NCBI GenBank assembly: GCA_021129515.1
Contig: JAJOLD010000006.1
Location: 1 to 50,933 of the forward strand
Direction: 5' to 3'
DNA: 50,933 bases
DNA from: Minisyncoccota bacterium
GTDB lineage: Bacteria; Patescibacteriota; Minisyncoccia; Phycocordibacterales; UBA918
Shown piece by piece: positions 31,013-36,361 of the stretch; position 1 is the stretch's first letter, and each line of letters opens with the position of its first letter. The translations under genes were made by a program, and so were the position numbers. A model generated the notes under the pieces. It was not told where the DNA came from and searched no databases. It worked only from the letters and a program-made list of their open reading frames with translations.

Positions 31013-31024
31013 AGGGTGTTGCGC

Positions 31025-33058
31025 ATGCTATACTCACCACATATGCCCATGACACCGCAATCACCACACGAACACACTCCGCATCCAAAAAAGGATACTG
31101 AACATGATCCGCGCGAATCGTTGCGTTCGCGGGTGAGTCATTCGGAGGGTATTGAATCAATGCGCGACAGGCTCTATCAGCGTGGTAATACGCAGGCGCC
31201 AACCAAGCGAACCAAGCTTATCGACACGTCTATTCGCACGCCGCGGACTTCCTGGGAACAGCCACCAGTGACAACAAGTGCTACATCAGAAACAATGCAA
31301 GATGCGCTTGCACAGACATCTATGGGTACAAAACGTAAAAAAACATATCGAGTAAAGCTTGTCCTTGCAGGGATATTCTTCTTTGTGGTTGCTATGGGTC
31401 TTTCTAGTGCATTTTTGTATTTTGGTACTAACTCAATTTCAGGCAGCAATATTGCCATTGATGTATCAGGACCATTTTCCATTGGTGGCGGTGAAGAAAT
31501 ACCGATTCAAATTTCAGTCGCCAATCAAAATACGGTATCAATTGAATCAGCAACACTCATTGTTGAGTACCCAGCCGGGACACAATCGACAACCGAACGA
31601 GGTAAGGAGCTGTTTACCGAACGTATCCCACTCAATGATATTGGCACCGGTGAAGTGGTGAATGTACCTGCTCGAGCTATTGTCTATGGTGAAGAAAATG
31701 AAGAAAAAGAGGTGACCGTATCGGTAGAGTATCGTGTCAGCGGTTCGAATGCGACTTTCTTTAAAGAAGCAGACCCTCTTCGCTTTAAAATCAACTCATC
31801 ACCAGTTGCAATGCGTGTCGAGACAGTCGAGAAAATATCTTCAGGTGAAGAAATTGCCGTGCAGGTTGTGGTGTCATCAAATGCCCCAACCGAGATAACA
31901 GACATTTTAGTTAAAGCAGCATATCCATATGGCTTTGATTATTCGACAGCTTCTCCAGAGCCTGTGTCAGGACAAGATGTCTGGCATATTGCATCCTTGG
32001 CACCTGAAGAAACAAAAGTCATAGATATTACAGGTATTATTGTGGGAAAACAAAACGATGAACGAGTCTTCAATTTCTCAACAGGTGTGCCAAACGAACG
32101 TGACCCATATGCACTCGCATCTATCTTTTCTACCACTGATGTCGGTGTGCAAATGGAAGATCCGTTCCTTGGCATTACTGTGAGTGTCAATGGGAAAGAG
32201 AATGATATTGTGGTGATTGAACCTAAAGAGAGTGCAGTGGTGCGTATTAATTTTACCAATACCCTGAATGACACACTCTATGATGGGATTGTTGAGGCAA
32301 AGCTTGATGGTAACGCACTCAACGAAATTACCATCAATAGCGCAGAAGGTTTCTACGATTCAACAACAAATACCATTACATGGGATTCTGTGGATGTAGG
32401 GTCATTGTCTGAGCTACTTCCCGGTGGTAGTAGTCAAGTTGATTTTCAGTTAGTATCGAGCAAGGATGCTGCACAGACACCAGAAATAAATCTTGAAGTG
32501 TCAGTCAAAGGGCGTCGTGTCTTTGAAGACCGGGTACCACAAGAACTCAATGGCGGTGTGTCACGGATTATCCGTGTTGAGAGTGCGGTGACATTTGCTT
32601 CTTCGGTACTCCATTCAGCAGGACCGTTTACCAACACTGGTCCTGTGCCACCAGTTGCAGAAGAAGTGACGCAGTACACTCTTGATTTATCGGTGGAAAA
32701 TGGAAGTAACGATATCACGCTCGCCGAAGTGACTGCTGTGTTGCCGCCATATGTCACTTGGCTTGATTTAAAAACAGCTGATGATGTTGTGGTCTATGAT
32801 GCAGTAAATCGTTTGATGACATGGACCATTGGAGATATGGATGCAAATACTCGTGAGACCGCTTCGGTGCAGGTCTCAGTGACTCCGAGTCTCAACCAAA
32901 TCGGCACCGTACCAAATATACTTGAGTCACAGCAGTTTAAAGCCACTGACCGATTTACCGGCACTGTACTTCGCGCATCCACTCCTGCAATTACAACGAT
33001 GTTATTGGAAGATCCCTACCACGAAGCACGTTCAGGCGGGCAAGTACAAGCACCGTAA
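31025..33058 (+). CDS. Membrane-anchored surface protein with repeated beta-rich domains
   Basis: Disordered N-terminus, a single TM helix (LVLAGIFFFVVAMGLSSAFLYF), then about 540 aa of Ig/CARDB-like beta-rich sequence. GAGGG lies 9 nt before ATG 31025. Confidence 0.6.
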   Translation: MLYSPHMPMTPQSPHEHTPHPKKDTEHDPRESLRSRVSHSEGIESMRDRLYQRGNTQAPTKRTKLIDTSIRTPRTSWEQPPVTTSATSETMQDALAQTSMGTKRKKTYRVKLVLAGIFFFVVAMGLSSAFLYFGTNSISGSNIAIDVSGPFSIGGGEEIPIQISVANQNTVSIESATLIVEYPAGTQSTTERGKELFTERIPLNDIGTGEVVNVPARAIVYGEENEEKEVTVSVEYRVSGSNATFFKEADPLRFKINSSPVAMRVETVEKISSGEEIAVQVVVSSNAPTEITDILVKAAYPYGFDYSTASPEPVSGQDVWHIASLAPEETKVIDITGIIVGKQNDERVFNFSTGVPNERDPYALASIFSTTDVGVQMEDPFLGITVSVNGKENDIVVIEPKESAVVRINFTNTLNDTLYDGIVEAKLDGNALNEITINSAEGFYDSTTNTITWDSVDVGSLSELLPGGSSQVDFQLVSSKDAAQTPEINLEVSVKGRRVFEDRVPQELNGGVSRIIRVESAVTFASSVLHSAGPFTNTGPVPPVAEEVTQYTLDLSVENGSNDITLAEVTAVLPPYVTWLDLKTADDVVVYDAVNRLMTWTIGDMDANTRETASVQVSVTPSLNQIGTVPNILESQQFKATDRFTGTVLRASTPAITTMLLEDPYHEARSGGQVQAP

Positions 33059-33219
33059 GTAGTATACGTAGTTGGTATAGAGGATTCGATACGCTCACGT
33101 GAGAGAACAAAAGTGAAGATTCTGTTCGTGGTGACCGCTTTGTCACCGCAAGCATGGTGTATTTCATGCTACATAAGCACTGGATTAATCCATAATATGC
33201 AGGTATAGTACGGGAATTA

Positions 33220-33293
33220 AATGAAGAAATGAGCGCAAGCGACTATTCTAAATTTAGTTCCCAATTTCTTCCTGACCTAGAAGAAATTGCTGG
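33220..33293 (+). repeat. Structured tandem repeat upstream of glyQS, copy 1
   Basis: AATGAAGAAA...CGACTATTCTAAATTTAG..CAATTTCTTC-CTGACCTA-GAAGAAATTGCTGG. Confidence 0.75.
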
Positions 33294-33341
33294 AACACTA
33301 AGCAGTATCAAATGATAATGACCGAAAACAACACAATGGTG

Positions 33342-33436
33342 AATGAAGAAAGGAATGAGAAGGTCTGGGAGACCTTCGAATCGACTATTCTGAATTTACA
33401 TCTCAATTTGCCCCTAGTCTAGGGCAAATTGCTAGG
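33342..33436 (+). repeat. Structured tandem repeat upstream of glyQS, copy 2
   Basis: AATGAAGAAA...CGACTATTCTGAATTTAC..CAATTTGCCC-CTAGTCTA-GGGCAAATTGCTAGG. The stem covaries with copy 1. Confidence 0.75.
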
Positions 33437-33488
33437 TGCTCGTATGTTAAATAATGTTTTAAATATGAAAGAAGAAGGTAACTCAAAA

Positions 33489-34853
33489 ATGGAAAAGATC
33501 GTATCGCTCTGCAAGCGACGAGGGTTTGTCTTCCAAGGTAGTGAAATTTATGGAGGCTTAAAGGGAACCTGGGACCATGGACCGCTTGGTGTCGCACTCA
33601 ACAACAACATAAAGCGCGAGTGGTGGAAGCTGTTTGTCGATAGTCGTGAAGATATGTATGGATTGGATGCTGCAATCATCATGAATGCAAAAACATGGGA
33701 TGTTTCAGGACATACTGGTTCTGGTTTTTGTGACCCACTGGTAGAAGACTCAGAGACGGGTGAGCGTTTCCGCGCTGACCACCTCTTGAAGGACCATGGT
33801 ATTGACGCAGAAGGTATGTTGCTTGAGGAAATTGATGGCATTATTGCAGAAAAAGGAATCAAAAGCCCAAAAGGAAATACACTCTCTCCAGCGCGGCAGT
33901 TTAACCTTATGTTTGAAAGTCGTATTGGTGCAACTGCGGGGGATGAAGGAAAAGTATATCTGCGACCAGAAACTGCGCAGGGTATTTTTGTAAACTTTAA
34001 AAATGTTGTGGATGCAATGAGTCCCAAGATGCCCTTTGGTATTGCGCAGATTGGTAAAGCATTTCGCAACGAAATTGCGCCGCGCGAGTTTCTTTTCCGC
34101 GTACGTGAGTTTGAACAAATGGAGATTGAATATTTTGTAAAAGAAGAGCACTGGGAGGAGGAATATGAGAAACTCCGAAAGGACATCCAGGTGTGGCACA
34201 AACACCTCGGACTTCGTGACGAAAATATCCGCGAGTATGAGGTGCCCGATAATGACCTTGCTCACTACTCGAAGCGTACTATCGACTTTGAATACAACTA
34301 TCCGGGCAAGGGCTTTGATGAACTTGCAGGTTTTGCGTACCGCACCGATCACGACCTTAAAAGCCATATGGAAGCAAGTGGTGTGTCTCAGGAGTATATT
34401 GAGCCAGATGGATCGCGGTATATTCCACATGTGCTCGAACCATCCTTTGGTATTGGGCGCGCAATTACGGCAGTGCTCTGCGAGGCATACACTGAAGACG
34501 AAATGGGTGGTGATACGCGCACGTATCTCAAACTTCCTGCGCACCTTGCACCGTACCGCGCAGCAGTCTCGCCGCTTTTGAAGAACAAGCCGCAGCTCGT
34601 AGAAAAAGCACGCGAGGTATTTACCATGCTGAAAAAGGAATTTGGCAATATCGCGTGGGACGATAACGGCAATGTAGGGAAGCGGTATCGTCGTCAAGAT
34701 GAAATCGGTACTCCTGCATGTATCGTTATCGACTTCGATACCTTGGGAGATGAGAAACCCGAACACAAAGACACGGTCACCGTACGTGACCGCGACACAG
34801 GCGAGCAGGAACGATTCAAAATTGAGGATTTAGTCGCTAAGCTTTCAGAATAA
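33489..34853 (+). CDS. glyQS: Glycyl-tRNA synthetase (dimeric class II type)
   Basis: MEKIVSLCKRRGFVFQGSEIYGGLKGTWDHGPLGVALNNNIKREWW is the canonical N-terminus. Confidence 0.92.
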   Translation: MEKIVSLCKRRGFVFQGSEIYGGLKGTWDHGPLGVALNNNIKREWWKLFVDSREDMYGLDAAIIMNAKTWDVSGHTGSGFCDPLVEDSETGERFRADHLLKDHGIDAEGMLLEEIDGIIAEKGIKSPKGNTLSPARQFNLMFESRIGATAGDEGKVYLRPETAQGIFVNFKNVVDAMSPKMPFGIAQIGKAFRNEIAPREFLFRVREFEQMEIEYFVKEEHWEEEYEKLRKDIQVWHKHLGLRDENIREYEVPDNDLAHYSKRTIDFEYNYPGKGFDELAGFAYRTDHDLKSHMEASGVSQEYIEPDGSRYIPHVLEPSFGIGRAITAVLCEAYTEDEMGGDTRTYLKLPAHLAPYRAAVSPLLKNKPQLVEKAREVFTMLKKEFGNIAWDDNGNVGKRYRRQDEIGTPACIVIDFDTLGDEKPEHKDTVTVRDRDTGEQERFKIEDLVAKLSE

Positions 34854-34921: not shown

Positions 34922-36361
34922 ATGTCTGAGAAAAAACCAAAATACATCACCACCACGTTGCCATATGTAAACGCAGACCCACATATTGGGTTTGGACTTG
35001 AGATTGTGCAAGCCGATACGCTTGCGCGCTATTATCGTCTTATGGGTGAAGAGGTGTTTTTCACGACGGGTACCGATGAGCACGGACAAAAAATCGCACA
35101 AAAAGCAGATGAAGCAGGGCGTGACCGTCAGGAATATGTTGACCACTTTGCGGGTGAGTTCAATCGACTCAAAGATGCACTCAATCTCTCATACGACACC
35201 TTCATCCGTACTACCGATGCCAACCACATTGCCGCTGCACAAGAGATGTGGAAGCGATGCGATGCAGCTGGTGATATTTATAAGAAAAAATACAAAGGAC
35301 TCTATTGTGTCGGTGATGAAATGTTTGTAAAGGAGTCAGACCTCGTCAACGGGAAATGCCCGAATCACCCCACACAAGATCCAATCGAAGTTGAGGAAGA
35401 GAACTATTTCTTCAAACTCTCAAACTATCAGGAGTACCTCGAGGAGTATCTCTCACAAGAAGGGGTAATAGAGCCCGAATGGCGACGGCAGGAGGCGCTG
35501 AAGTTCGTACAAGGTGGTCTAGAAGATTTCAGCATTTCACGCGAGGTGTCACGTATGGACTGGGGTATCCCGGTTCCAGGAGACGATGCGCATGTCATGT
35601 ATGTGTGGTTTGATGCGCTCACCAACTACATCTCAACGACCGGCTGGCCCGAGGAAAACGGTAACTTTACAAAATTTTGGGAGGAGGGTGAAACACTCCA
35701 GCTTGGCGGTAAGGACCAAGTGCGCTTCCAGTCAATTATGTGGCAGGCAATGCTTAAGAGCGCAGGTGTTGCGGCAACCGACAAGGTCTTCTACCACGGC
35801 TTTATCAATAGTGGGGGACAGAAGATGAGTAAGTCATTGGGGAATGTTATTTCGCCGTACGAGCTTGTCGAGAAGTATGGTACCGATGCAACCCGCTACA
35901 TCCTCCTTCGCCACGTACATCCATTCGATGACTCCGATCTCACCTGGGAAAAGATGGACGAATACTATACCGCGAACCTCGTGAATGGTTTGGGAAACCT
36001 CACTGCACGTATTATGAAAATGGCAGAGACACATCTCGATGGACCTATCGAGCGACCCGAGACAGCAGGATTTGACACTGCATATACTGATGCATTCGAC
36101 ACGTGTAACTTCCAAGCAGCCTGTGACTTCGTGTGGCAAAAGGTAGGAGCACTCGACGAGAAAATCACCGAAACAGAACCATTCCGACTCGTAAAGACCG
36201 ACAAGGAAGCCGCGGTGCAGATAATCAAGGAATTAGTACACGACCTCTATATGGTGGGGCGTATGCTCAATCCAATCATGCCCGAGGCGAATGTCATTAT
36301 CAAAGAAGCCGTCCTCGCAAACAAAAAACCCGACAATCTTTTTGCACGGTTAGAAACATAA
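34922..36361 (+). CDS. metG: Methionyl-tRNA synthetase (minimal, no C-terminal appended domain)
   Basis: YVNADPHIGFG (HIGH-like) and QKMSKSLGNVI (KMSKS). Confidence 0.93.
   Translation: MSEKKPKYITTTLPYVNADPHIGFGLEIVQADTLARYYRLMGEEVFFTTGTDEHGQKIAQKADEAGRDRQEYVDHFAGEFNRLKDALNLSYDTFIRTTDANHIAAAQEMWKRCDAAGDIYKKKYKGLYCVGDEMFVKESDLVNGKCPNHPTQDPIEVEEENYFFKLSNYQEYLEEYLSQEGVIEPEWRRQEALKFVQGGLEDFSISREVSRMDWGIPVPGDDAHVMYVWFDALTNYISTTGWPEENGNFTKFWEEGETLQLGGKDQVRFQSIMWQAMLKSAGVAATDKVFYHGFINSGGQKMSKSLGNVISPYELVEKYGTDATRYILLRHVHPFDDSDLTWEKMDEYYTANLVNGLGNLTARIMKMAETHLDGPIERPETAGFDTAYTDAFDTCNFQAACDFVWQKVGALDEKITETEPFRLVKTDKEAAVQIIKELVHDLYMVGRMLNPIMPEANVIIKEAVLANKKPDNLFARLET

Follow-up and report, generated by a model that had tools for sequence, protein, structure and literature searches.

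The gap of 430 nt (33059-33488) between a gene encoding a DUF11-domain protein and the gene of a glyQS-type glycyl-tRNA synthetase (glyS) in a Minisyncoccota bacterium contains two tandem copies of a structured, non-coding repeat. The gap lies within a 50,933-nt stretch of DNA, referred to here as the window, from contig JAJOLD010000006.1 of assembly GCA_021129515.1; the source genome, designated G000, comprises 857 kb in 24 contigs, and related genomes carry similar designations. The two copies very probably belong to a dispersed, covarying and mobile repeat family that is not specific to glyQS. The locus is organized as follows, where CM is the score against a covariance model of the element, P1 to P3 are its three helices and strands are those of the window.

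31016..33058, +: upstream gene, DUF11-domain protein; its orthologue lies immediately 5′ of glyS in relatives
33059..33217, +: single-copy sequence of 159 nt between the upstream gene and copy 1; hairpin resembling a terminator at 33144-33159
33218..33296, +: copy 1, the whole three-helix fold, 79 nt; CM match 104.7 bits; its minimum-free-energy structure is the consensus fold
33218..33256, +: copy 1, domain 1; P1a pairs 33218-33222 with 33252-33256, and P1b pairs 33225-33228 with 33246-33249
33223-33224 with 33250-33251: copy 1, G-A internal loop, AA in copy 1
33233-33240: copy 1, P2 (GC-GCAA-GC), followed at 33240-33246 by the conserved CGACUAU junction
33257..33296, +: copy 1, domain 2 (P3); lower stem 33257-33261 with 33292-33296, upper stem 33262-33271 with 33280-33289
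33272-33279: copy 1, P3 loop CUGACCUA, with the CU bulge at 33290-33291
33340..33438, +: copy 2, 99 nt; CM match 80.4 bits; the fold of copy 1 with a longer hairpin in place of P2
33359..33377, +: copy 2, expanded P2 hairpin GAAGGUC-UGGGA-GACCUUC
33399..33438, +: copy 2, P3; lower stem 33399-33403 with 33434-33438 (one U-G pair), upper stem 33404-33413 with 33422-33431
33414-33421: copy 2, P3 loop, with the CU bulge at 33432-33433
33489..34853, +: glyS, glyQS-type glycyl-tRNA synthetase, with class II core and anticodon-binding domain
34922-36361: metG, the next gene 3′ of glyS

Neither the left part of the gap nor the spacer separating the two units recurs elsewhere in the genome. Both strands of the gap contain only open reading frames (ORFs) of 31-64 amino acids (aa), consistent with the statement in the initial annotation that no credible ORF is present, and the glyS ATG at 33489, a start fixed by alignment with relatives, is 50 nt past the end of copy 2, the distance originally given. 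A promoter and terminator scan of the plus strand of the site returned the hairpin at 33144-33159 as the sole feature worth mention, the remainder being unconvincing. By eye, a -10-like TATAGT is present at 33204-33209, 8 nt 5′ of copy 1, and is a candidate for a glyS promoter, the transcript of which would start at the element. The Shine-Dalgarno-like signal in the region upstream of glyS (33440-33488) is limited to GAAGG, 10 nt before the start. At gathering scores, Rfam recognizes two tRNAs in the whole window and nothing more; these, tRNA-Leu(GAG) at 1539-1625 and tRNA-His(GUG) at 2755-2827, are also the only ARAGORN matches. A cmscan of 32800-33800 against Rfam (15), at E values up to 10, returned only chance rows for snoRNAs, viral RNAs and lncRNAs. 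In contigs of runs X1, X2, X3 and X6 there is no joint that skips a unit, and the other contigs that matched, over 33220-33302 alone, represent other copies. At 33418, in the P3 loop of copy 2, one contig of run X6 has C for T, which is nearer the family consensus, CCUA.

Each unit is larger than the hairpins first described, being a three-helix fold of 79 or 99 nt, and the hairpins themselves are as claimed. In copy 1, CAATTTCTTC (33262-33271) and GAAGAAATTG (33280-33289), located by a repeat finder, form a perfect 10-bp stem with an 8-nt loop, and in copy 2 CAATTTGCCC (33404-33413) and GGGCAAATTG (33422-33431) do likewise. At three adjacent stem positions CTT in one copy is replaced by GCC in the other, with AAG replaced by GGC on the opposite arm, and the outer part of the long hairpin covaries too (GTTCC/GGAAC versus CATCT/AGGTG). 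The blocks reported as shared by the two units, AATGAAGAAA and CGACTATTCT(A/G)AATTTA, correspond to direct repeats D1 and D3. The additional hairpin of copy 2 is confirmed and extends further than was claimed (GAAGGTC-TGGGA-GACCTTC, 33359-33377). The predicted folding energies are -21.0 kcal/mol for copy 1 and -34.6 kcal/mol for copy 2 (z scores of -5.0 and -5.05), values reached by none of 200 shuffled sequences.

The element has the architecture of two abutting irregular hairpins, together ~80 nt in length, with conserved unpaired nucleotides. P1 consists of 5 bp (UAAAU/AUUUA), a tandem G-A/G-A internal loop and then four covarying pairs, and closes P2, a mini-hairpin of variable length that is mostly GC-GNAA-GC flanked by a second G-A/G-A. 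P2 is replaced by five to six Watson-Crick pairs in some copies and by the 7-8-bp hairpin in copy 2 of the window; one relative has three hairpins in its place. The junction, CGACUAU, is conserved and abutted directly by P3, a bulged helix of 15 bp made up of 5 bp, a conserved CU bulge, 10 bp and a pyrimidine-rich 8-nt loop ending in CCUA. Copies with only P3, copies with only P1 and P2, and the P2 expansions document that the modules occur alone or multiplied. There is no conserved 3′ extension of the element, a subset of copies alone sharing ..A(A/T)TCG(G/T). The small hairpin module GAARGUC-UGGGA-GACYUUC, which is the P2 of copy 2, recurs at C1:157831-157867 and C1:174353-174391 of G000 and inside an expanded copy of the relative G028 (L212:9707-9875), and may constitute a second small repeat family or a type of terminator.

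RNAalifold, applied to a MAFFT alignment of seven copies from G000, predicted 26 pairs, 15 of which have double compensatory changes, and the covariance model was built from these seven copies. When 40 copies, none from G000, were aligned with MAFFT without structural guidance, the identical 26 pairs were obtained de novo, 21 with double changes. In this alignment 96.7% of cells are standard pairs, compared to 77.3% after shuffling and 32-48% with slid partners, and none of 500 shuffles reached the observed value on any of five measures. Alignment of 40 matches by the covariance model, which leans towards the model, gave 97.5% paired and 24 of 26 pairs with double changes. The proposal that the structure rather than the sequence is preserved extends from two copies to 21-24 of 26 pairs over 40 copies, far beyond chance, with compensatory change maintaining the fold. 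G-U pairs are more frequent than A-C pairs (31 to 8 in the model matches and 38 to 9 in the MAFFT alignment), which identifies the strand as given (+) as the strand that folds; the consensus fold was not obtained from the minus strand of copy 2.

A search with the covariance model, as the initial annotation had suggested, located homologous units both in the source genome and in its relatives. A DNA search of G000 detected further copies on four other contigs, and the covariance model gave 12 matches with E values of 7e-5 or better, all intergenic and including three tandem pairs. In addition to the two copies upstream of glyS, the copies in G000 are located between tsaE and polA; at the stop codon of dnaN (two copies, before a DciA-like gene); between genes for a Trp/Tyr-type and an Asp/Asn/Lys-type synthetase; beside obg; between secD and secF; between gap and rpiB (a partial copy); after a gene encoding an FGE-sulfatase domain (two copies); and between an exo/endonuclease-phosphatase gene and a convergent gene for a CCA-adding enzyme. 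Of 36 other genomes in the same taxonomic family, 21 contain the element (E values of 0.01 or better), with the largest numbers in G028 (23), G034 (20) and G005 (16). There was no match in 24 genomes that represent 24 other families of the order, one genome per family, and when 150 genomes were sampled evenly across the order, the 149 outside the family yielded only three weak matches (38-48 bits). A pattern scan of public contigs added seven matches confirmed by the covariance model, in 6 of the 80 loci listed, the rest being mostly chance; the records that contain the confirmed loci among those listed are titled Patescibacteria group bacterium, Candidatus Saccharibacteria, Candidatus Paceibacterota and simply 'bacterium'. 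With the same pattern, none of the 80 loci listed from viral contigs was confirmed. A generic scan of the genome for P3-like hairpins was swamped by terminators and chance matches and revealed no copies beyond those already identified by the model. We found no description of such a repeat in the literature on Saccharibacteria, Patescibacteria or the Candidate Phyla Radiation (CPR); the supplements of large motif catalogues, which were outside this search, could hold it. The element is a multi-copy family essentially confined to one family of Patescibacteria-type genomes. Its copies are scattered between genes here and in relatives, which makes them structured genome repeats rather than a dedicated glyS switch.

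Copy numbers vary widely, ranging from 0 to 23 among the relatives, with 12 in G000 and only 1 in the closely related G032. Near-identical pairs are present inside genomes (97% identity in G028, 96% in G029 and 87% for copies C3a and C14 in G000), and in all 11 pairs tested the nearest copies from different genomes are at non-orthologous loci. The element moves or duplicates between intergenic sites. The similarity of copy 1 to the C14 copy spans 33220 to 33302, a boundary that was obtained from loose contig ends. The boundaries of C3a and C14 are sharp, with no terminal inverted repeat and no target duplication by eye. A miniature inverted-repeat transposable element was considered and rejected, as the ends, AATGAAG... 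and ...CACTAAG, are not inverted repeats and the C3a and C14 flanks share no duplication. At least one orthologous copy, between rplJ and rplL in G023 and G030, is conserved far above neutral sites: 76 of 78 positions are identical, with one indel, whereas within rplJ only 78 of 158 third codon positions (49%) are identical, compared to 147 of 158 second positions, and the spacers that adjoin the copy differ in length and are identical at 33 of 55 and 14 of 27 positions.

Flanking genes were evaluated for 72 distinct copies, at loci that comprised the best matches and clusters, with genes called as the longest ORFs of 80 aa or more. All 72 are located between ORFs. Between co-directional genes, 32 are in the sense and 11 in the antisense direction; 14 are between convergent and 11 between divergent genes. 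The 5′ end of the element is often placed at a coding boundary. In 23 of 71 cases the start or end of an adjacent coding sequence falls between -10 and +5 nt relative to the first base of P1, as compared to 2 of 69 at the 3′ end. Of 46 co-directional upstream genes, 16 have their 3′ end within the first 7-8 nt of the element. The upstream stop codon is then formed by the conserved U before P1 plus the first two bases of P1 (eight cases), or is the UGA of AAUGA (five cases), and for divergent genes the start codon may end on the conserved U before P1 (five cases, verified for obg by its MFVD start). A T precedes P1 in 41 of 60 copies, in an A-rich context, with no strongly conserved target of 4-5 nt. 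The dnaN product ends in ...PMNK* in all six genomes compared, with the next gene 2-15 nt later in three, and in G000, G028 and G011 (three of the six) the dnaN stop codon is the start of the element. Copies precede an Asp/Asn/Lys-type synthetase gene in two of six genomes, and inspection of the flanks by eye indicates that the stop codons of smc and argS are further sites common to several genomes. The gene at C1:17186-17989 of G000, which encodes a protein with an FGE-sulfatase-type C-terminal domain, terminates within the opening bases of a copy of the element; domains of this type are typical of the variable proteins of diversity-generating retroelements. In G023 and G030 (loci L016 and L018) there is no recognizable Shine-Dalgarno sequence 5′ of the start codons of rplJ and rplL.

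The initial annotation proposed that the tandem units are a cis-regulatory leader of glyQS, T-box-like, glycine-sensing or another type of riboswitch, and the location lends itself to this: both copies are on the same strand as glyS and end 50 nt 5′ of its start, two other copies in G000 adjoin synthetase genes, one faces the gene of a CCA-adding enzyme, and the fold has conserved unpaired nucleotides. Such a role is, however, very improbable, and as a conserved regulator of glyQS the element is already refuted on present evidence. There is no match to the T-box (RF00230), the glycine riboswitch (RF00504) or any other Rfam family at E values up to 10, and no terminator or Shine-Dalgarno-sequestering alternative structure was found. 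The element is absent from the glyS loci, with 1.5-kb flanks, of all 29 relatives investigated, one extra row being a 16-bit chance match, and the site is empty in the closest relatives. The spacer to the glyS ATG is 40 nt in G032, which has a glycyl-tRNA synthetase (GlyRS) with 86% identity and, directly upstream, an orthologue of the DUF11 gene (E value of 8e-112, 36% identity across 487 residues); in G028 it is ~60 nt. With relatives having such short spacers, the 430-nt gap is a lineage acquisition, composed of 159 nt of unique sequence plus two copies, and the presence of the element before glyS is a peculiarity of this genome. Elsewhere, copies adjoin polA, dnaN, obg, secD/secF, rpiB, gyrA, smc, ftsK, efp, rplL and genes for surface proteins, and some are antisense or have convergent neighbours. 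In G017 (C6:35032-36681, with ~390 nt between residues about 103 and 134), G003 (C31) and G012 (C9) the GlyRS match falls into two parts, which could reflect an insertion, an intein or a frameshift. The other suggestion made initially, an independent small RNA, can be phrased as a family of trans-acting small RNA genes with C/U-rich loops that pair with ribosome-binding sites, as in known multicopy small RNAs. The multiple and sometimes tandem copies, the pyrimidine-rich P3 loop ending in CCUA and the -10-like hexamers visible by eye shortly upstream of some copies (such as the TATAGT before copy 1) are in its favor, but there is no U-tract terminator after P3, the flanks are not conserved, and the 23 of 71 copies that begin on the stop or start codon of a neighbour leave no room for a promoter; this explanation is improbable. 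Still harder to credit is a short peptide, translated from the ATG of AAATGA to a TAG in the P3 loop and coupled to translation of the upstream gene. Four copies do read as similar 19-residue peptides (MSK..TI.N..PN..LT*), with the ATG often positioned right after a stop codon, but a stop codon occurs within the first five codons in 16 of 31 ATGA-bearing copies, including both copies in the window (MKK* in copy 1), the frame shifts with 1-nt changes in the length of the P2 loop, and the 3′ arm, past the stop codon, is nonetheless conserved and covarying. As a reading for the whole family, a small protein-coding gene was rejected because the frame is not kept across copies.

A non-autonomous element that transposes as single-stranded DNA (ssDNA) is a possibility to be taken seriously, although not one that we consider likely. 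A Y1 (HUH) transposase of the IS200/IS605 or RAYT type would then recognize the two hairpins as the left and right ends. Because transposition would require folding, the fold would be kept, and strand-specific insertion would produce the sense bias as a side effect. This is consistent with the lack of inverted repeats and target duplications at C3a and C14, with hairpin domains located 0-6 nt from the ends of the unit, with the strand asymmetry (G-T tolerated 31 times, A-C 8), with a precise 5′ junction that has the same DNA geometry in both transcriptional contexts and a T before P1 in 41 of 60 copies, and with the patchy turnover and recent copies inside genomes. Y1_Tnp matches are present in 16 of 22 element-bearing and 4 of 15 element-free genomes of the family, G000 having three, but these tallies are weak because the genomes are kin and not independent. 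The element occurs without a Y1_Tnp match in G034 (20 copies), G036 (8), G020 (7), G030 (4), G032 and G001, and, conversely, Y1_Tnp occurs without the element in 15 of the 24 genomes from other families. The target side shows T and an A-rich context but not a strongly conserved motif of 4-5 nt, the orientation of copies is mixed between 325 and 503 kb in the single-contig genome G023, and the orthologous rplJ-rplL copy is conserved well above neutrality, unlike a decaying transposon remnant. Although Y1_Tnp genes are common throughout the order, the element does not flank any of the three Y1-like genes of G000. These Y1_Tnp-like (IS200/RAYT-type) frames encode 225-238 aa and are located at C3:54316-55008, past the end of the window, C1:548-1222 and C1:113076-113789; the first two are flanked by perfect inverted repeats of 18 and 23 nt. 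G023 has six identical IS200-like tnpA copies on C1 (155 aa, for example 436166-436519), one of which is 1.1 kb from a copy of the element, a proximity judged to be coincidental, and there is no second element match beside the tnpA at this locus (L016). Transposition as ssDNA and a role as RNA are not mutually exclusive.

The reading that we favor, and regard as probable rather than assured, is that the units upstream of glyS are tandem copies of a lineage-specific, mobile, structured interspersed element that resembles the repetitive extragenic palindromic (REP) and BOX elements of other bacteria, a role at the RNA level included. The element would be co-transcribed with neighbouring genes and could act, as do REP elements, bacterial interspersed mosaic elements (BIMEs) and BOX elements, as a folded module in 3′-untranslated regions (UTRs) and between cistrons. 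The conserved loop, bulge and junction may be recognized by a host protein or RNase, and the module could protect or process the mRNA. Where the first bases of the element are the stop codon of the upstream gene, termination would be coupled to the melting of P1. The 5′-UTR or intercistronic region of glyS would then carry the element as a passenger, with an effect that is generic at most, on stability or processing, and not specific to an amino acid. According to PMC12306157, which cites Liang et al. 2015, ribosomes stall at REPs located within 15 nt of a stop codon, and translation is lowered. The copies that overlap stop codons resemble such stop-proximal, ribosome-stalling REPs.

Several observations weigh against this interpretation. 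Transcription, processing and an effect on expression are all inferred, and a recombinase could recognize the conserved loop, bulge and junction just as well. Of the 43 copies between co-directional genes, 11 are antisense, in G000 including those at obg and secF, the start codons of which abut the element, so that sense transcription is not obligatory. The geometry of the 5′ end relative to coding boundaries is alike at the DNA level in sense and antisense contexts, which points to a rule of DNA insertion rather than to RNA function. The excess of G-U pairs may be inflated because the matches were picked by a model that favors G-U, the identity of the rplJ-rplL pair could reflect recent conversion or re-insertion rather than selection, and the gene calls in the flank analysis are crude and its loci are not a random sample.

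A more far-reaching version of the RNA-level interpretation, which is speculative and rather unlikely, is that the element is a functional structured RNA of a new class. It would serve as a dock for a protein or RNase dedicated to this family of Patescibacteria, set on stop codons so that termination opens P1, and would tune relative expression within operons such as rplJ/rplL, dnaN/dciA, tsaE/polA and DUF11/glyS in genomes with little sign of Shine-Dalgarno sequences. It would have spread by a transposase-independent route that joins the first base of the element to start or stop codons.

The ultra-small genomes of CPR/Patescibacteria are thought to be nearly without spare DNA, and few structured non-coding elements have been described in them. 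A fold of ~80 nt with strong covariation and no counterpart in Rfam reaches up to 23 copies in a genome of less than 1.1 Mb, and at least one copy is more conserved than the second codon positions of a ribosomal protein gene. Such copies are either a cost to the genome or of some use to it. The family provides a testable handle on operon-internal RNA processing and stop-codon-linked control in organisms that are hard to grow, and bears on how repeats spread where a cognate transposase is not evident. It is also a warning for annotation, as a covarying hairpin before a synthetase gene need not be a riboswitch.

The element can be compared with several known systems. With the T-box leaders of glyQS (RF00230) it shares a location upstream of a glyQS-type gene and G-A motifs within a helix, but it has no specifier or T-box sequence and no match to the model, is not conserved at glyS, and has many unrelated neighbours. 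Palindrome-associated transposable elements derived from IS200/IS605 have no terminal inverted repeats and no target duplications, hairpins near both ends and strand asymmetry. The element is likewise without inverted repeats or duplications, has subterminal hairpins and is strand-specific, but it does not track Y1_Tnp, and no cognate full-length insertion sequence (IS) with the ends of the element was found, the IS ends themselves not having been compared. The REP/BIME repeats of enterobacteria and pseudomonads are transcribed with their flanking genes, in 3′-UTRs and between cistrons, and resemble the element in being short, extragenic, multi-copy hairpin repeats, often tandem and near stop codons, with compensatory changes in their stems. 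The element differs in being twice as long, with two domains that include tandem G-A pairs, a GNRA-type mini-hairpin and the conserved bulge and loop, in being present in tens rather than hundreds of copies, in not flanking the Y1/RAYT-like genes of G000, and in having no counterpart of the GTAG-type 5′ motif of REPs. The BOX elements of Streptococcus pneumoniae are modular boxA-boxB-boxC intergenic repeats that encode no transposase and are predicted to fold in mRNA. Although the element has no sequence relation to BOX, has a different fold and resides in a different host phylum, it is similarly modular, with modules that occur alone or multiplied.

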